From positions 1 to 60,263 of the forward strand of contig CANQZW010000005.1 of NCBI GenBank assembly GCA_947628435.1: DNA of 60,263 bases, written 5' to 3'. Both the position numbers and the translations under genes were made by a program. How positions within the stretch are numbered: the first letter of the stretch is position 1; each line of letters opens with the position of its first letter. This document shows, piece after piece, positions 9,325-60,139 of the stretch. The notes under the pieces were generated by a model, which was not told where the DNA came from, searched no databases, and saw only the letters and a list, made by a program, of their open reading frames with translations. The stretch is from an uncultured Bacilli bacterium. Lineage in GTDB: Bacteria > Bacillota_I > Bacilli_A > RF39 > UBA660.

Positions 9325-9425
9325 ATTCGTTTGAATGAACTTCTTGTTCTTCAACCACACAGAAAAGGTTTAAAGTAAACAATTATGTACCTTAATGGTG
9401 AGTCTATTAAATGAGAAGGAGGAAT
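9325..9425 (+). promoter_or_regulatory. structured leader of the rplU-prp-rpmA operon (L21-leader-like)
   Basis: Hairpins TTGAATGAAC-TTCTT-GTTCTTCAA and AAGGT..ACCTT in the 128-nt gap before rplU. Firmicute L21 operons are known to carry a conserved leader. Confidence 0.4.
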
Positions 9426-30879: not shown

Positions 30880-31509
30880 ATGAGAAGTAAAAAAAGTAGT
30901 AAAATAATAATAGGAGTAATAGCATTAATATTATGTGTAGCAGTAGGATATGCCTTATTTTCTGAAACGTTAAACATAGAAGGTACTGCAACTGCAAGTG
31001 GTACTTTTGATATAACAATGACTTGTGAAGATCCACAATTAATTGGAGCAACAGGAGAATGTCAAGTTAGTGATAACACAGTTACAACAACAAGTACACT
31101 TTCAAAACCAACAGATGCTGCAGGATTTGTAATTAAAGTAACAAATAATGGTACGATACCTGCTAAATTAACGAGTATTGATTCTAATAACAATAAAAGT
31201 CAGGATTTATCAAGTAGTGGAAAAGAAGTATATTTTGATGATAAATATTTAATGGCTTATTATGATATCAGAAAATACAATGATGGTACTGATGTTAATG
31301 AATCTGATAGCTATTGCGATGTTGATACTTGTGATGATAGTGCTTTCGAAAATGCAAATATAACATTGCAACCAGGAGAATCTGTTTATTTAATAATAGC
31401 TCATGGTTGGGCTGATTCTCAAGAAGTAGAACAACCAAAATTAGATAATGGTACAGCTACTATGAATTATAATGTAACTTTAAACTTTACTCAAGCAACC
31501 AATGAATAA
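30880..31509 (+). CDS. secreted TasA/camelysin-like protein with SipW-type signal peptide (paralogue A)
   Basis: KIIIGVIALILCVAVGYALFSETLNIEGTATASGTFDI resembles the A-[YL]-F-[ST]-[DE]-T .. GT[FL]D[IL] signature of SipW-dependent TasA-family proteins; beta-rich remainder. Confidence 0.55.
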   Translation: MRSKKSSKIIIGVIALILCVAVGYALFSETLNIEGTATASGTFDITMTCEDPQLIGATGECQVSDNTVTTTSTLSKPTDAAGFVIKVTNNGTIPAKLTSIDSNNNKSQDLSSSGKEVYFDDKYLMAYYDIRKYNDGTDVNESDSYCDVDTCDDSAFENANITLQPGESVYLIIAHGWADSQEVEQPKLDNGTATMNYNVTLNFTQATNE

Positions 31510-31537: not shown

Positions 31538-31566
31538 TTCATAAAATTTACGAGTGTTTTTAAAAT
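31538..31566 (+). promoter_or_regulatory. putative promoter of the small-peptide mRNA (copy 1)
   Basis: TTCATA, 17-nt spacer, TAAAAT; predicted +1 about 10 nt before the 5' arm. Confidence 0.35.
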
Positions 31567-31652
31567 AAAAGAAGAATGATTAAAGTGAGGGCACCTATAA
31601 ATTGGGCTAGTTACTTTCCACTTTTTCTTTAATAAGAAGGGTGGTGATGCTT

Positions 31653-31733
31653 ATGAAAAAAGAAATAACATTTCTTAAAGTAATAATCATCCTTTTAATT
31701 TTTTTATTAGTAATACTAATATTTAAAATATAA
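31653..31733 (+). CDS. 26-aa hydrophobic peptide, candidate type I toxin (copy 1)
   Basis: MKKEITFLKVIIILLIFLLVILIFKI. SD GGGTGGTGA 5-6 nt upstream, buried in hairpin 31618-31644 (CCACTTTTTCTT / AAGAAGGGTGG). An alternative ATG lies at 31647. Confidence 0.5.
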   Translation: MKKEITFLKVIIILLIFLLVILIFKI

Positions 31734-31814
31734 AATAAAAGTCACTATCCCAAGGGGGTAGTGACTTTTCCAAAAAACAATGGAAAGTAATCTAGCCTAG
31801 TAGGTTGCTCTCAC
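31728..31814 (-). ncRNA. candidate ~85-nt antisense RNA (antitoxin), copy 1
   Basis: Predicted +1 at 31814, 7 nt after the minus-strand TATAAT. Ends at the bidirectional terminator and overlaps the stop codon of the peptide ORF. Confidence 0.45.
31737..31769. terminator. bidirectional intrinsic terminator inside the cassette (copy 1)
   Basis: AAAA-GTCACTATCCC-AAG-GGGGTAGTGAC-TTTT. The U-tract is longer on the minus strand (TTTTATTTTATATTTT). Confidence 0.7.
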
Positions 31815-31821
31815 TAAATAT

Positions 31822-31850
31822 ATTATATAATATTAGTAAACATATGTAAA
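31822..31850 (-). promoter_or_regulatory. near-consensus sigma-A promoter driving the antisense RNA (copy 1)
   Basis: Minus strand reads TTTACA (31850-45), exactly 17 nt, TATAAT (31827-22). Confidence 0.6.
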
Positions 31851-31920
31851 TGATTTTTAAAAAATTATTTACGTATTCTTATAATATTTACTATTTCTAC
31901 AATATGAGTATTAATTAAAA

Positions 31921-32055
31921 TTATTATTGTTGTGATGATGAGATTTCTTCTATGAATTTAATATTAAAATCATAAGAATCTGTTTATTTAATAATGATAT
32001 AGGGGTTATGATATATAATATGACTAAGAGTTTTACTCAAGCAACCAATGAATAA
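31921..32055 (+). pseudogene. decayed 3' remnant of a TasA-like paralogue (psi-B)
   Basis: Retains ..gaatctgtttatttaataat.. and ..ttttactcaagcaaccaatgaataa, matching the 3' end of 30880-31509; no intact frame. Confidence 0.7.
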
Positions 32056-32198
32056 AAAATCTAGAAATAGATTTTTTTTATTTTTCATAAAATTTACGAG
32101 TGTTTTTAAAATAAAAGAAGAATGATTAAAGTGAGGGCACCTATAAATTGGGCTAGTTACTTTCCACTTTTTCTTTAATAAGAAGGGTGGTGATGCTT

Positions 32199-32279
32199 AT
32201 GAAAAAAGAAATAACATTTCTTAAAGTAATAATCATCCTTTTAATTTTTTTATTAGTAATACTAATATTTAAAATATAA
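32199..32279 (+). CDS. 26-aa hydrophobic peptide, candidate type I toxin (copy 2)
   Basis: Matches copy 1 throughout (offset +546). Confidence 0.5.
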   Translation: MKKEITFLKVIIILLIFLLVILIFKI

Positions 32280-32360
32280 AATAAAAGTCACTATCCCAAG
32301 GGGGTAGTGACTTTTCCAAAAAACAATGGAAAGTAATCTAGCCTAGTAGGTTGCTCTCAC
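32274..32360 (-). ncRNA. candidate antisense RNA, copy 2
   Basis: Same promoter (32396-32368), arm and terminator as copy 1. Confidence 0.45.
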
Positions 32361-32479
32361 TAAATATATTATATAATATTAGTAAACATATGTAAATGTT
32401 TTTTCAACAATAAGTTAAAAATATTGACTGGGGGTTAATAATATTATTAATGAGTAAAATAAAAAATAAGAAGGTAGCT

Positions 32480-32688
32480 ATGATGATAGTATTTACGAAA
32501 ACTATTATTGTTGTTATGATGAGATTTCTTCTACGAATTTAATATTAAAATCATAAGAATCAGTTTATTTGTTAATATAACATGGATGGTTCAATTTGCA
32601 AGGAAATCCATAACCAGCATTAGAAGATGGTACTGCAACGTTAAACTATAATATTACTTTAGGATTTACTCAAGCAACCAATGAATAA
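32480..32688 (+). pseudogene. decayed TasA-like paralogue (psi-C) with large internal deletion
   Basis: Upstream region homologous to that of 33117. The 3' end back-translates to stop-PALEDGTATLNYNITLGFTQATNE (compare KLDNGTATMNYNVTLNFTQATNE). Confidence 0.75.
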
Positions 32689-32832
32689 AAAATCTAGAAA
32701 TAGATTTTTTTTAATTTTTTTAAAATTTTTAAAGTGTTTTTAAAATAAAAGAAGAATGATTAAAGTGAGGGCACCTATAAATTGGGCTAGTTACTTTCCA
32801 CTTTTTCTTTAATAAGAAGGGTGGTGATGCTT

Positions 32833-32913
32833 ATGAAAAAAGAAATAACATTTCTTAAAGTAATAATCATCCTTTTAATTTTTTTATTAGTAATACTAAT
32901 ATTTAAAATATAA
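32833..32913 (+). CDS. 26-aa hydrophobic peptide, candidate type I toxin (copy 3)
   Basis: Same ORF (offset +1180 from copy 1). The upstream -35 region is diverged (TTTTAA instead of TTCATA). Confidence 0.5.
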   Translation: MKKEITFLKVIIILLIFLLVILIFKI

Positions 32914-32994
32914 AATAAAAGTCACTATCCCAAGGGGGTAGTGACTTTTCCAAAAAACAATGGAAAGTAATCTAGCCTAGTAGGTTGCTCTCAC
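32908..32994 (-). ncRNA. candidate antisense RNA, copy 3
   Basis: Same promoter (33030-33002), arm and terminator as copy 1. Confidence 0.45.
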
Positions 32995-33116
32995 TAAATA
33001 TATTATATAATATTAGTAAACATATGTAAATGTTTTTTCAACAATAAGTTAAAAATATTGACTGGGGGGGTAATGGTATTATTAACATGTAAAATAAAAA
33101 AAGGAGTAGTAAAAAA

Positions 33117-33752: not shown

Positions 33753-33778
33753 AATAATAAAAAGAAATAAATAAGAAT

Positions 33779-34313
33779 TGAAGTTGTAAGATAAAAGTGT
33801 ACACAAAAAAAGTGTATGCTTTTATTTTTGATATAATTTAAGATGATGATTTGATAAAAATAGAAAAAGATCTAGGGGCATATTCTAAAGAAATGGGAAT
33901 TAGTTTGGGATTACTTTATACATGGATTAAAAAATATGTTAAATAACAAAATAAAAAGAGGATATAAAAACCTCGAAACCATCGTTCACACAGATCAAGG
34001 TACATTATATTCCTCAGTGTCATTTAACAATATATTTAATTCCTACACAGTTACCAGATCTATGTCTAGAGCTGGAACACCAACAGATAATCCAGTTATC
34101 GAATCAAAAAATGGCTGGATTAAGAAAGAAATGTATATTGATTTTGACATAAATAATTATAACACAGTTCAAGAGTTTATTGATGATATTGTATGGGATA
34201 ATAATAATTTTAGACCAGAATATGCTCTTTAATATAAAAACCCAGTTGAATATCGAACCCAACTAGGTTTTAAATAATTACTTTTTAGTGTCTACTTTTT
34301 ATTTACAACTTCA
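33779..34313 (+). mobile_element. internally deleted IS3-family insertion sequence (~535 bp)
   Basis: Imperfect terminal inverted repeats TGAAGTTGTAAGATAAAAGTGTACAC (33779-804) and GTGTCTACTTTTTATTTACAACTTCA (34288-313), with TG..CA ends. Flanked by the direct repeat ATAAGAAT (33771-78 and 34314-21). Contains OrfA HTH and OrfB C-terminal fragments. Confidence 0.75.
33936..34232 (+). pseudogene. truncated IS3-family transposase (C-terminal part of the DDE integrase domain)
   Basis: ..IVHTDQGTLYSS..SMSRAGTPTDNPVIES..NNFRPEYAL, then an in-frame stop, then YKNPVEYRTQLGFK. Upstream fragment DLGAYSKEMGISLGLLYTWIKKY is an OrfA HTH. The N-terminal catalytic region is missing. Confidence 0.8.
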
Positions 34314-34336
34314 ATAAGAATTTATTTCTTTTTATT

Positions 34337-34591
34337 TTAGAACCATCTTCTAGGTGGGTAGTATGGATATGCTCCTGGTGGATAATAGTATGTTGGTCTA
34401 TTATATCCGTATCCGTTATTCCAAAAAGCTGGTGCAATGGCAGCTCCTGTTACACCGCCTAATAAAAACGGAAATACAAAACCTCCGGCTAATCTTTCGT
34501 CATTTGTATTTCTTGTATTTGTACTATTATATGTTGGGATGTAATAATAACCATATGGGGTGGACATATTACTTTGATATTTTTGATTCAT
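34337..34591 (-). CDS. small Tyr/Gly/Pro/Asn-rich protein (spore-coat-like composition)
   Basis: MNQKYQSNMSTPYGYYYIPTYN..GGFVFPFLLGGVTGAAIAPAFWNNGYGYNRPTYYYPPGAYPYYPPRRWF. ATG 34591 lies 5 nt after GGAAGGTGA. Confidence 0.6.
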   Translation of the reverse strand: MNQKYQSNMSTPYGYYYIPTYNSTNTRNTNDERLAGGFVFPFLLGGVTGAAIAPAFWNNGYGYNRPTYYYPPGAYPYYPPRRWF

Positions 34592-34704
34592 CTTAATCAC
34601 CTTCCTTTAAAATAGTATATGTTTTTATAAGTAAAATGACATATATGTGTTATAATTAAATAGTAAATAAATGTTTATTTTTTTAGATTAGGTAGTGATT
34701 TTAT

Positions 34705-58299: not shown

Positions 58300-58527
58300 T
58301 TGTTTTAAAGGCGTTTAAGAAAAAGAGTATGGGTAAAACTATTAAAGAGAGTATGGTAAGGTGAAAGCATACATAGATAATAACCATATAAATGGTTTTC
58401 TAAAGCTGTTTAATCTAATAGGTTAAAACGTTAACTTGCGTTAAGAGTTTAAGAGCTAGATTGGTAATCTAGAACAAAGGTGGTACCGCGGTTATGAATC
58501 GTCCTTTATTTAAGGATGATTTTTTTA
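58300..58527 (+). promoter_or_regulatory. T-box riboswitch, Met specifier
   Basis: AGAGAGTATGGTAAGGTGAAAGC stem I elements. AUG specifier at 58392-94. Canonical T-box AACAAAGGTGGTACCGCGG (58474-92). Terminator AATCGTCCTT-TATTT-AAGGATGATT plus T7. Upstream extended -10 TGTTATAAT (58287-95). Confidence 0.85.
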
Positions 58528-58594
58528 ATGATTATAAAAAATAAAGAATTATGTTTTAAAAGTAAAACAAAATAGTAAAAGGAGAGTGTTAATA

Positions 58595-60139
58595 ATGAAA
58601 AAAAAGTATTATATAACAACTGCAATAGCATATACATCAGGAAAACCACACATAGGAAATACTTATGAAATTGTTTTGGCAGATGCAATTGCAAGGTATA
58701 AAAGAATGAAAGGTTATGACGTATATTTTCAAACTGGTACTGATGAACATGGTGAAAAAATAGAGTTAAAAGCTAAAGAAAAAGGTGTAACACCTAAAGA
58801 GTTCGTTGATGATGTTTCTTTAGAAATAAAAAGAATATGGGATGTTATGAATACCTCATATGATAAATTTGTTAGAACAACTGATCCAAAACACGAAAGA
58901 ATCGTTCAGAAAATTTTTGATAAAATGTATGAAAAAGGAGATATTTATAAAGGCGAATATAAAGGGCTTTATTGCACTCCTTGTGAATCTTTTTGGACTC
59001 AGTCACAATTAGTTGATGGTAAGTGTCCAGATTGTGGCAGAGGTGTAGAAGAAAAAAAAGAGGAAGCTTACTTTTTTAAATTATCAAAATATCAAGATAA
59101 ATTAATTAATTATATTAATGAACATCCAAATTTTATTAAACCTGAATCAAGAAAAAACGAAATGTTAAATAACTTTATTAAACCTGGTTTACAAGATTTA
59201 TGTGTGTCAAGAACGTCTTTTGATTGGGGTATACCAGTTGACATAGATAAAAAACACGTTGTTTATGTTTGGCTTGATGCATTAACAAATTATATTACTA
59301 ACATAGGTTATGATCCTGATGGTTCAAGCGAAGAATTTAAGTATTGGTGGCCAGCTGATCTTCATTTAATAGGTAAGGATATAATACGTTTTCATACCAT
59401 TTACTGGCCTTGTTTTTTATGGAGTCTTGGATTAGAATTACCTAAAGAAGTATTTGGTCATCCATGGCTTTTAACCAATAGCGATAAAATGAGTAAGAGT
59501 AAGGGTAATACCATATACGCTGATGATTTAGTAGAATTATTTGGAGTAGATGCTGTAAGGTATTACGTACTTCATGAAATACCATACGCAAATGACGGGA
59601 ATTTAACTTACGAATTACTAATAGAAAGAACTAATACTGATTTAGCTAATACTTTAGGTAATTTAGTTAACAGAACAATATCAATGGCTAATAAATATTT
59701 TGATGGTGTTGTTAATAATACTAAAGTAAATGAAGAAATTGATAATGAATTAATTAACATGATTAATAAACTTGAGTCTAAAGTAGAAGAAAAAATGGAT
59801 AAATTAGAAATAGGTTTTGCGTTAGATGAGATATTTGATGTGTTAAGACGTAGCAATAAATATATTGATGAGACTATGCCTTGGGTACTTGCTAAAGAAG
59901 AAAATAAAAAAGAAAGATTACAAACTGTTTTATATAATTTGCTTGAATCAATAAGAGTTTGTGCTTACTTTTTAAGACCATTTTTAACTAATACTTCCAA
60001 TAATATATTTAAGCAATTAAATATAAATGATGAAAAACCTTCATTTAATAATGATAATTTGTATACTAATATGAAACCAGAAGTATTATTTGCAAGAATT
60101 GATAAAGATAAAATGTTAGAAGAAATAAATAAAGAATAA
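58595..60139 (+). CDS. metG: methionine--tRNA ligase (short form, no C-terminal tRNA-binding domain)
   Basis: AYTSGKPHIGN (HIGH class), zinc knuckles CTPCESF / CPDCGR, KMSKS. ATG 58595 lies about 8 nt after AAGGAGAG. Confidence 0.95.
   Translation: MKKKYYITTAIAYTSGKPHIGNTYEIVLADAIARYKRMKGYDVYFQTGTDEHGEKIELKAKEKGVTPKEFVDDVSLEIKRIWDVMNTSYDKFVRTTDPKHERIVQKIFDKMYEKGDIYKGEYKGLYCTPCESFWTQSQLVDGKCPDCGRGVEEKKEEAYFFKLSKYQDKLINYINEHPNFIKPESRKNEMLNNFIKPGLQDLCVSRTSFDWGIPVDIDKKHVVYVWLDALTNYITNIGYDPDGSSEEFKYWWPADLHLIGKDIIRFHTIYWPCFLWSLGLELPKEVFGHPWLLTNSDKMSKSKGNTIYADDLVELFGVDAVRYYVLHEIPYANDGNLTYELLIERTNTDLANTLGNLVNRTISMANKYFDGVVNNTKVNEEIDNELINMINKLESKVEEKMDKLEIGFALDEIFDVLRRSNKYIDETMPWVLAKEENKKERLQTVLYNLLESIRVCAYFLRPFLTNTSNNIFKQLNINDEKPSFNNDNLYTNMKPEVLFARIDKDKMLEEINKE

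Follow-up and report, generated by a model that had tools for sequence, protein, structure and literature searches.

A candidate type I toxin-antitoxin-like cassette with a predicted convergent small RNA, associated with secreted-protein gene arrays in uncultured rabbit-gut Bacilli

The mRNAs of type I toxins are short (150-400 nt) and encode proteins of 20-60 amino acids that are usually hydrophobic (PMC8594479). For Fst/RNAII of Gram-positive bacteria, which is represented by par of pAD1 and by chromosomal par-like loci, the features compared below were taken from PMC7472228. In the window, by which we mean the whole 60,263-nt stretch of DNA analysed here, we found three copies of a cassette that combines a short predicted mRNA (190-230 nt) for a small hydrophobic peptide of 26 amino acids with a putative gene for a complementary antisense RNA, recognisable at the sequence level by its promoter, 5' domain and terminator. 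This layout agrees with the organisation of Gram-positive type I loci (PMC8594479). We propose, with a probability of about one half, that the cassette is a chromosomal type I toxin-antitoxin-like module of an undescribed family that is restricted to a small clade of low-GC rabbit-gut Bacilli. Type I systems, in which a peptide that is toxic when over-produced is neutralised by an RNA, are hard to detect by homology, and among uncultured, low-GC gut Bacilli of the Mollicutes-like kind they have, to our knowledge, hardly been charted; if validated, the new family would extend type I systems to these organisms.

Six of the seven elements that the original prediction listed for this locus are present in the sequence, with correct coordinates in copy 1. 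We found that the three window copies (Table 1) are 100% identical over 300 nt (31553-31852 in copy 1 and the equivalent stretches in copies 2 and 3), and that the window contains exactly three occurrences of the clamp arm, and shuffled sequence none. These identical copies may have arisen by tandem duplication of units consisting of a secreted-protein gene and a cassette, followed by homogenisation through gene conversion. Using a 19-mer taken from the 3' arm, we retrieved 15 diverged copies from three related uncultured rabbit-gut Bacilli genomes, for a total of 18 copies in four species-level genomes, window included; 13 full copies were aligned for comparison. Each genome carries five or more copies, and several copies per genome are usual for type I systems. 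The copies occupy several unrelated locations, and between species the cassette is 88% identical, compared with 75-81% for the flanking protein-coding genes. Some copies sit at contig ends, and the unit often breaks assemblies. A genome scan with a 17-mer from the 5' arm gave chance matches only, and a metagenome scan with a 19-mer from the Shine-Dalgarno (SD) region returned 10 contigs, none of which holds the cassette. Around the same gene family in other genomes, the small-RNA covariance model found no homologue at 76 loci, and a search for small hydrophobic ORFs likewise found none. Because the cassette is missing from the same-family intergenic regions of more distant genomes, it is a separate addition that does not belong to the regulation of those genes.

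Table 1. Features of the cassette and their positions in the window
Feature	Position	Strand	Remark
Copy 1 of the cassette	elements within 31538-31852		all coordinates verified
Candidate weak sense -10, AATGAT	31575-31580	+	proposed from inspection of the 13-copy alignment
5' arm of the long-range clamp	31585-31620	+	similar in sequence to the convergent small RNA's 5' domain
Anti-SD/SD hairpin (CCACTTTTTCTT / AAGAAGGGTGG)	31618-31644	+	buries the only Shine-Dalgarno sequence
Peptide ORF, 26 codons, MKKEITFLKVIIILLIFLLVILIFKI	31653-31733	+	one transmembrane helix with Lys on both flanks
Shared hairpin GTCACTATCCC/GGGGTAGTGAC	31741-31765, then T4 (to 31769)	both	11 bp, loop AAG
Second local hairpin (UUUCCA...UGGAAA)	31767-31786		includes the GGAAA from the 3' arm
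3' arm of the clamp	31781-31814	+	also template for the 5' domain of the small RNA
Predicted small antisense RNA, about 88 nt	31725-31814	-	covariance model R1, 88.8 bits
Small-RNA promoter TTTACA-17-TATAAT	31850-31822	-	predicted +1 = G31814
Copy 2, whole cassette	32084-32396	+	100% identical to copy 1 across the cassette
Copy 2, 5' arm	32131-32166
Copy 2, ORF	32199-32279
Copy 2, small RNA	32271-32360	-
Copy 2, small-RNA promoter	32368-32396	-
Copy 3, whole cassette	32718-33030	+
Copy 3, 5' arm	32765-32800
Copy 3, ORF	32833-32913
Copy 3, small RNA	32905-32994	-
Copy 3, small-RNA promoter	33002-33030	-
Promoter of downstream secreted-protein gene, TTGACT-G7-TAATGGTATTAT	33058-33081	+	back to back with the small-RNA promoter

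The hydrophobic, single-helix peptide of 26 residues that had been predicted for this locus is borne out by the homologues: the ORF is intact (24-26 aa) in 10 of the 13 full copies. The nine copies with 26 codons contain no indels and show double-step synonymous changes at Leu codons (CTT to TTA and the reverse), and every replacement in the core of the peptide is hydrophobic; the peptide contains neither Pro nor Gly and ends in K-I. This pattern of substitution argues that the hydrophobic ORF is conserved as coding sequence. Searches of Pfam, NCBIfam, PADLOC and PHROGs with the peptide gave no match, searches of protein libraries found no similarity to known toxins, and a look-up of a 30-aa version of the ORF with a GTG start returned no record. 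An SHP/Rgg-like pheromone was also considered and dropped because the neighbours in the window (family genes, a GH25 lysozyme-like gene, uvrC and mutL) include no regulator.

In three copies the peptide gene is disrupted: by a frameshift in an A run, seen in two independent assemblies, by deletion of the SD and start codon, and by another frameshift. The small-RNA module is intact in all three. Two further modules are toxin-less orphans that have lost the peptide gene altogether and are placed directly between tandem family genes, without ORF or 5' arm. Decay of the ORF with retention of the small RNA is what one would expect if the toxin were lost and the antitoxin retained. The same architecture could also operate with no toxin at all, with the ORF encoding a small, non-toxic membrane protein that might, for example, modulate a transporter, a sensor or the neighbours' secretion and that is kept low by a cis-antisense RNA and by folding of its mRNA. 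Many bacterial single-helix proteins of 20-50 residues are not toxic, and both the conservation of the ORF and the usual position of the cassette beside secreted-protein genes fit such a role. However, the presence of at least five copies per genome with tandem amplification, and the recurrent loss of a working ORF beside a retained antisense gene, would be unusual for a housekeeping small protein; unusual, too, are the extreme sequestration of the SD and a strong antisense promoter facing a weak sense promoter, and the cassette is absent beside the same gene family in other genomes. We thus regard a harmless protein as rather unlikely. Were it the case, the locus would still neatly exemplify how a structured, conserved mRNA for a small protein can be partnered by a cis-antisense RNA.

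Two hairpins proposed from the window, one burying the SD and one serving as a terminator shared by both strands, are present and covary across homologues. In the anti-SD helix, which has nine pairs, three pairs show two-sided changes (such as A-U to G-C in three copies), four show one-sided changes that preserve pairing, and 95% of cells are paired; we identified no state in which the SD is exposed. The shared hairpin, which is conserved and sits ten nt past the stop codon of the ORF, has five pairs (helices 7-8) changed on both sides. The covariation score was 0.125, compared with 0.090 ± 0.005 in shuffles and at most 0.045 when partners were slid. The sense-side tail of the shared hairpin reads U4-CC, the antisense-side tail U4AU4AUAU4. 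Since typical terminators in this genome have tails of T5-T9, the hairpin probably stops minus-strand transcription fully but terminates plus-strand transcription leakily. The second local hairpin has 8-10 bp in most homologues and at least six contiguous pairs in 13 of 15 copies, with two-sided changes at stack positions 6, 8 and 9 (UA/AU/GC).

A short ORF with a terminator-like hairpin 10 nt past its end and a further gene beyond might be taken for a leader peptide whose attenuator hairpin controls read-through into that gene. Yet the downstream genes have a conserved promoter of their own, a strong convergent promoter lies between hairpin and gene, and the peptide is conserved as a transmembrane helix with no run of regulatory codons. 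In addition, two copies (L114 and L111) have no gene downstream in that orientation. Attenuation is, in our judgement, extremely unlikely.

The predicted near-consensus promoter on the minus strand, convergent to the peptide gene, is retained with constant spacing in 15 of 16 copies. It matches the consensus at 11 of 12 positions and is the best promoter-like site in the region; in another 20 kb, only two other sites match as well. Among the copies, TTTACA is conserved in 15 of 16, the 17-nt spacer in 15 of 16 and TATAAT in 16 of 16, followed by 7 nt to the G, and variation is confined to the spacer. From these data, we infer that the small RNA is transcribed from this promoter. In folds of 15 homologues, the RNA has a conserved 5' domain followed by two hairpins, one in the middle and the other at the terminator. 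As anticipated, the predicted RNA reaches the peptide gene, where the overlap is confined to the stop codon plus one or two codons before it. Its covariance model also weakly matches the opposite strand at 31585-31708 (+), with 19.3 bits. The small-RNA promoter and 5' domain are the most conserved parts of the cassette, although the invariance of the 5' domain, like that of the 3' arm, is inflated, partly because the 19-mer search pattern came from the 3' arm. When the 5' domain was paired with the 5' part of the mRNA (RNAduplex), z lay between -3.0 and +0.9, and no pairing site was conserved at either the SD or the start codon. Pairing in trans of the Fst/SprA1 type was rejected, as the small RNA showed no significant pairing with the SD or start region.

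The cassette is found in tandem arrays of secreted-protein genes whose promoters contain poly-G tracts. Of 14 small-RNA modules for which downstream sequence is available, 11 have a poly-G promoter of this family within about 80 nt downstream, and the peptide gene accompanies the module in 13 of 15 cases outside the window and 3 of 3 inside. The module is thus tied to the neighbouring promoter about as tightly as to the peptide gene, and may have a function of its own. Structure prediction confidently gives the flanking secreted protein a beta-sandwich fold; this predicted structure has no significant match in the PDB, and searches of Pfam, NCBIfam, PADLOC and PHROGs returned only weak, sub-threshold matches at chance level. 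If the small-RNA gene were the real conserved unit, it could be an insulator upstream of phase-variable secreted-protein genes, where convergent transcription and antisense pairing would destroy read-through, or a regulator acting in trans; the peptide ORF would then be a passenger. The orphan modules, the closeness of the poly-G promoters and the strong conservation of the small-RNA promoter and 5' domain are consistent with this. However, the poly-G promoter is widespread in the secreted-protein gene family, including many genomes that have no module, and the ORF and anti-SD hairpin are under selection of their own. Moreover, no target-like site for the small RNA was found elsewhere in the 60-kb window, none that convinced by eye was seen in the 5' UTRs of family genes, and the invariance of the 5' domain must be discounted for the search pattern. 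We consider it unlikely that the small RNA alone is the conserved unit.

The plus-strand RNA of the cassette folds at -87.6 kcal/mol (z = -9.75), a value reached by none of 200 shuffles; random 233-nt windows of the same genome average -34 ± 7 kcal/mol, and the homologous cassette of a relative folds with z = -8.91. Both the MFE and the centroid fold contain a long-range clamp between the 5' and 3' arms (helices 1-3, 26 pairs), which is 97-100% paired among homologues; its repeats are interrupted by bulges. The clamp of the original prediction holds in part: it folds and its complementarity is kept, but the homologous copies contain no compensatory double substitutions in it, the 3' arm being invariant, and its 3' partner lies downstream of the terminator-like hairpin. 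Because this hairpin and its U4 tail lie inside the clamp, both the clamp and the proposed sense RNA of ~240 nt require read-through of the hairpin; we predict a sense RNA of about 190 nt if it is terminated and of about 230 nt with read-through.

Imperfect inverted repeats of about 35 bp around a 160-bp segment might instead act as DNA, either as a MITE-like element or as an invertible segment that places the peptide gene behind a strong outside promoter. The unit does exist in multiple copies and frequently interrupts assemblies. Like invertible promoters, it is located ahead of genes for surface or secreted proteins, and its minus strand also folds well. The plus strand folds better in all 13 copies, by 10-22 kcal/mol, but a genome-wide control shows a similar strand bias (-6.8 ± 7.5 kcal/mol), and this advantage is weak evidence because it lies only about one standard deviation beyond that bias. 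Speaking against a DNA element are two invariant and four variable wobble pairs, which form only as plus-strand RNA, and an internal orientation that is the same in all 13 full assembled copies from four genomes. The repeats are bulged, with a longest perfect run of 10 bp. A MITE had been named in advance as the reading to adopt if the unit proved to be a dispersed repeat with target duplications; we found a multi-copy unit whose repeats are internal, with conservation running 36-45 nt past both of them, no inverted repeats at the unit ends and no target-site duplication at the one insertion boundary compared. Phage and plasmid collections gave AT-rich chance matches only, and two scans of viral contigs gave zero matches. 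A role of the repeats as DNA is therefore very unlikely.

Two parts of the original type I reading fell away. The proposed sense promoter, TTCATA-17-TAAAAT (31538-31566), matches at 9 of 12 positions, its -10 is not conserved in homologues and it is altered in copy 3; sites of this quality turn up about as often in shuffled sequence (18 found versus 19.4 expected). The candidate -10 that we propose in its place reads AATAAT or AAATAT in homologues and lies 4 nt ahead of the 5' arm, with no convincing -35. Similarly, the proposed switch, in which opening of the clamp would lengthen the SD-blocking helix, is seen in the window copy only: the clamp and the anti-SD hairpin coexist in most homologues. 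The ORF, the SD hairpin, the shared hairpin and the convergent promoter stand, each supported by the comparison of copies.

As a type I module, the cassette might work as follows. An abundant small RNA, perfectly complementary to the 3' end of the peptide mRNA, would overlap it by about 45 nt if the mRNA ends at the hairpin and by about 90 nt with read-through, and the duplex would lead to silencing or degradation of the mRNA, as with RatA, SR4 and SprF. Because the sense-side tail is only U4, part of the sense transcripts would read through into the 3' arm, which could pair with the extreme 5' end and sequester it, akin to the 5' upstream helix of par RNA I and the fbi-tac interaction of hok. 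The small RNA's 5' domain is almost identical in sequence to the mRNA 5' arm, and would thus displace that arm from the 3' arm. Predicted duplex energies would favour this exchange (-63.5 kcal/mol for small RNA and 3' arm, versus -45.0 kcal/mol for the clamp), which would leave the mRNA 5' end exposed to decay.

A further-reaching version of the type I reading, which we hold to be quite doubtful, is that the small RNA is an antitoxin of a new mechanistic type, mimicking its target's own 5' end and competing for a protective 3' arm beyond the terminator, and that the module has been recruited into arrays of phase-variable secreted-protein genes, where it insulates each poly-G promoter. Because the arm competed for lies beyond the terminator, such a mimic would act on read-through transcripts only. 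It would strip the mRNA of its 5'-end protection instead of blocking the ribosome-binding site, and the convergent RNA, including that of the toxin-less orphans, would shield the poly-G promoters from transcription of the upstream gene. The inverted-repeat design, in which the mRNA 5' arm equals the antisense 5' domain and the clamp partner lies past the terminator, is distinctive, and prompts one to ask how antisense competition acts together with leaky termination and 5'-3' locking. The link to tandem, apparently phase-variable secreted-protein genes also points to an unrecognised system of variable surface or secreted proteins.

That the locus represents no described family, as had been surmised, agrees with the database searches: Rfam, Pfam, NCBIfam, PADLOC and PHROGs gave no match. 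Over the whole window, Rfam at gathering thresholds returned only a T-box and an L21 leader, both outside the cassette region, and in a permissive search the best scores in the cassette region were 15-24 bits, against thresholds of 48-120. Several described systems are similar in organisation. Like Fst/RNAII, the cassette has convergent promoters and a shared bidirectional terminator, although its sense promoter is weak or uncertain and its sense U tract only 4 nt long. Unlike Fst/RNAII, it lacks the direct repeats DRa and DRb, through which the antisense RNA is complementary to the translation initiation region; its repeats are inverted, and the small RNA therefore looks like the 5' region of the mRNA instead of being its complement. 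The partner of the mRNA 5' end lies upstream of the terminator hairpin in Fst/RNAII and downstream in the cassette. As for 5' structure, Fst/RNAII has an intramolecular stem-loop that hides the SD and a helix that sequesters the 5' end; in the cassette, the SD hairpin covaries, and a 5'-end helix is predicted whose partner lies past the terminator hairpin and which shows no compensatory changes. The PXXXG motif and charged C-terminal tail of Fst are both absent from the cassette peptide. SprA1/SprA1AS of S. aureus shares with the cassette a short 3' overlap outside the ORF and a hydrophobic peptide (about 30 residues in SprA1); in contrast, the non-overlapping 5' domain of SprA1AS pairs with the SD and start codon, a complementarity that the cassette lacks.

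In hok/Sok and AapA1/IsoA1 of Gram-negative bacteria, the full-length toxin mRNA is kept inert by pairing between its distant 5' and 3' ends, as would be the case here, and is activated by 3' trimming; these systems also occur in several copies per genome. Their antisense RNAs, however, bind the 5' leader or the ORF and are fully overlapped by the mRNA, whereas the antisense gene of the cassette lies at the 3' end; the cassette also has no mok-like overlapping upstream frame, and the peptides are unrelated, with no Pfam match. With the Gram-positive systems TxpA/RatA, BsrG/SR4, BsrE/SR5, YonT/SR6 and SprG/SprF, the cassette shares an antisense gene on the 3' side and an overlap of 3' ends (PMC8594479). 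The overlap covers part of the ORF in those families but only the stop codon and its nearest codons in the cassette, and there is no sequence or Rfam similarity between them. We know of no TxpA/RatA-type family with a 5'-arm mimic. By analogy, duplex-dependent decay would be the likely outcome that the cassette and TxpA/RatA-type systems have in common.

We found every element that the original prediction had assigned to copy 1 of the cassette, the candidate type I toxin–antitoxin unit, in its expected place. Folding of the RNA 31577-31820 gave -87.6 kcal/mol, with the arms (imperfect inverted repeats) paired in the long-range clamp, compared with a mean of -42.9 for shuffles (z = -9.75) and -34 +/- 7 kcal/mol for random 233-nt windows of the same genome. 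The cassette occurs three times in the window at 100% identity, in an array bounded by two paralogous genes of a secreted-protein (flanking) family and interspersed with decayed fragments of such genes. Whereas the cassettes are identical, the fragments are only ~90% alike, and in a second strain of the species copy 1 differs at F24Y and in the spacer 3' of the hairpin; together, these comparisons suggest that gene conversion (concerted evolution) acts on the cassettes within the array.

Coordinates of the cassette elements and neighboring features in the window
Feature	Position	Strand	Remark
Cassette copies	31553-31852, 32099-32398, 32733-33032
5' arm, GTGAGGGCACC...CTTTCCA	31585-31620	+
Anti-SD/SD hairpin, CCACTTTTTCTT / AAGAAGGGTGG	31618-31644	+	Holds the sole Shine-Dalgarno (SD) sequence
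Peptide ORF encoding MKKEITFLKVIIILLIFLLVILIFKI	31653-31733	+
Terminator-like hairpin, GTCACTATCCC-AAG-GGGGTAGTGAC	31741-31765		Between A-rich run and TTTT
3' arm of clamp	31781-31814
Small-RNA promoter, TTTACA-17-TATAAT	31850-31822	minus
Stretch 3' of copy 1	31851-31915
Flanking-family genes	30880-31509, 33117-33752
Gene fragments	31907-31995, 32488-32576
Poly-G promoter	33058-33081		G7 at 33064-33070
Degenerate IS3-like element	33756-34336		rve/rve_3 fragment, 33936-34232
Inverted repeats of that element	33756-33810, 34282-34336		55 nt, 82% complementary
Gene for 87-aa protein	34337-34600	minus
Ribosomal protein L21 leader	9343-9414		Ordinary
T-box leader	58305-58509		Ordinary; upstream of next feature
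Methionyl-tRNA synthetase-like gene	58586-60139

No Rfam family matched the cassette, nor did any sequence in phage, plasmid and viral collections. In a related species, the syntenic locus holds one cassette, 88% identical (surrounding genes, 75-81% DNA identity), with the orthologous gene on one side and what is left of the second paralogue on the other. At the position of the IS3-like element this species has only a bidirectional terminator, and the 87-aa protein, which is Tyr/Pro/Gly-rich with a central hydrophobic segment and received no family assignment, is 74% identical there. A genome scan with a 19-mer of the 3' arm, through which homologous copies were ascertained, located copies, often at contig ends, in three MAGs from uncultured Bacilli of the rabbit gut. 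Within the retrieved loci, which formed the scope of the homology search, nhmmer and a covariance model confirmed 15 copies outside the window's species: 12 full, one cut by a contig end, and two orphans that keep the hairpins, 3' arm and minus-strand promoter and are devoid of the 5' arm and ORF. Around members of the flanking family in more distant genomes (76 loci), the covariance model detected no similar module and there was no small hydrophobic ORF, and a scan of JGI metagenomes returned chance matches only; the module thus appears restricted to this clade. The stretch directly 3' of copy 1 (GATTTTTAAAAAATTATTTACGTATTCTTATAATATTTACTATTTCTACAATATGAGTATTAA), which contains the plus-strand promoter-like TTAAAA-17-TATAAT, recurs 3' of a cassette at an unrelated tig-lon locus in another genome (L111 3786-3850), replacing the poly-G promoter. 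A mobile or invertible element acting at the DNA level is very improbable: conservation extends past both repeats, full copies have a single orientation (13/13), and no target duplication was seen at the one insertion boundary compared.

Comparison of 12 sequences showed 96.8% of cells paired for the proposed pairs, against 42-57% with partners slid, and a covariation score of 0.125, against 0.090 +/- 0.005 in shuffles. In the anti-SD helix, 3 of 9 pairs are changed on both sides and 4 carry one-sided changes that keep pairing; in the terminator hairpin, 5 of 16 are changed on both sides. An extra local hairpin between terminator and 3' arm (UUUCCUAUU...AAUAGGAAA) covaries at three stack positions. 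None of the 26 pairs in the three clamp helices is changed on both sides; they are 97-100% paired, with four variable positions paired via wobble. Because the 3' arm is invariant, in part through selection of the copies with a 19-mer out of that arm, we grade the predicted clamp as conserved complementarity rather than proven covariation. In all copies the plus-strand fold is more stable than the minus-strand one by 10-22 kcal/mol, weak evidence since random windows are biased too (-6.8 +/- 7.5 kcal/mol). A better argument for a plus-strand RNA comes from the wobble pairs, two invariant and four variable, which the opposite strand would turn into A·C mismatches.

The predicted convergent, near-consensus promoter of the small RNA, the putative minus-strand antisense transcript, was borne out at the sequence level: no promoter-like site in the region matches better (11/12 positions), and another 20 kb of the window holds only two sites of equal quality. 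Among 16 copies, TATAAT is kept in all, followed by 7 nt and G, TTTACA and the 17-nt spacer in 15 each, and substitutions are restricted to the spacer. The proposed sense promoter, TTCATA-17-TAAAAT, did not hold up: it is not conserved in homologues, and its 9/12 score is no better than chance. The sole consistent candidate is a -10-like AATAAT/AAATAT, 4-5 nt 5' of the arm, without a -35.

The ORF (24-26 codons; consensus MKKE[IN]xFLKV[IV][IN]ILL...K[IM]) is intact in 10 of 13 full copies. Nine 26-codon copies are free of indels; variable sites number 12/7/10 at codon positions 1/2/3, the second being least variable, two neighboring Leu codons change from CTT to TTA with the residue unchanged, and every replacement in the core is hydrophobic. 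That the ORF encodes a non-toxic small membrane protein under the same regulation is unlikely, and we give hardly any credence to a leader-peptide attenuator. The three disrupted copies, all of which retain the antisense module, carry an A-run frameshift (the same in two independent assemblies), loss of SD and start codon, and a frameshift yielding 42 aa. The A-run case is that of the related species (L098 6769-6783, equal to L018 4769-4783), where the ORF reads ATG-A9-TAA, one A short of other copies; either the frameshift truly inactivates the ORF, or slippage of transcription along the A-run could restore the frame.

Downstream sequence was available for 14 modules, and in 11 of these a flanking-family promoter, TTGAC[CGT]-G(7-12)-TATATGATATTAT, comes next within ~80 nt; its poly-G tract, inside the -35/-10 spacer, is the only G/C run of at least 6 in the 25%-GC window. 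This promoter occurs in 28/76 loci, spread over many gut Bacilli/Mollicutes-like MAGs (L024-L095, ~55 nt upstream of family genes; also L105, L110, L113, L115), and tract length varies between paralogues. The pattern resembles slipped-strand phase variation in a large multigene family. Its many paralogues per genome, often tandem, encode proteins of ~200 aa (550 aa in some loci) with a common N-terminal hydrophobic helix ending G-Y/F-A/S-x-F-S/N. AlphaFold gave a confident beta-sandwich (pLDDT 83.5). The proteins belong to no Pfam family, and the PDB offered nothing significant (TasA fibre 8aur at rank 7, E 0.027, TM 0.33). Linkage to this promoter, together with the orphans, would suit a module that has the small RNA at its core and serves to insulate or regulate phase-variable gene arrays, but the module is missing from the same gene family elsewhere, and we regard this reading as unlikely.

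The hairpin tail is only U4-CC in the sense direction and U4AU4AUAU4 in the antisense direction, while other terminators of this genome have T5-T9 tails; the hairpin thus appears to terminate the small RNA well and the mRNA only leakily. As the 3' partner of the clamp lies downstream of it, the clamp is possible only in read-through transcripts. Since the repeats are inverted, the 5' domain of the small RNA has nearly the same sequence as the mRNA 5' arm; pairing with the mRNA 5' region is not possible, and the duplex with the 3' arm would be perfect, at a computed -63.5 kcal/mol where the clamp reaches -45.0. The clamp would protect the mRNA 5' end, the small RNA would compete for the 3' arm, and the sense/antisense duplex would trigger decay. 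The anticipated switch, in which clamp opening lengthens the SD helix, shows up in the window's copy alone, where the predicted partner of the SD is an ORF-internal segment in the clamp form but the upstream anti-SD in the short form; in most homologues, however, clamp and anti-SD hairpin coexist.

A type I toxin–antitoxin module with a putative toxin is the best fit (probability about 0.5), based on the conserved tiny hydrophobic ORF, the covarying SD-sequestering hairpin, the strong, strictly conserved convergent promoter, the predicted short RNA over the mRNA 3' end, several copies per genome, and repeated ORF loss with the antisense gene kept. Using published features of Fst/RNAII and SprA1 (PMC7472228, PMC8594479), we found neither the direct repeats nor the PXXXG peptide of Fst/RNAII in the cassette, and both systems differ from the module in that its small RNA is unable to pair with the mRNA 5' region. 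With these defining Fst/RNAII features absent and no sequence match to any other toxin–antitoxin family, the cassette would be a new type I family with a variant RNA design, sharing its layout with Gram-positive families that have 3'-side antisense RNAs (PMC8594479).
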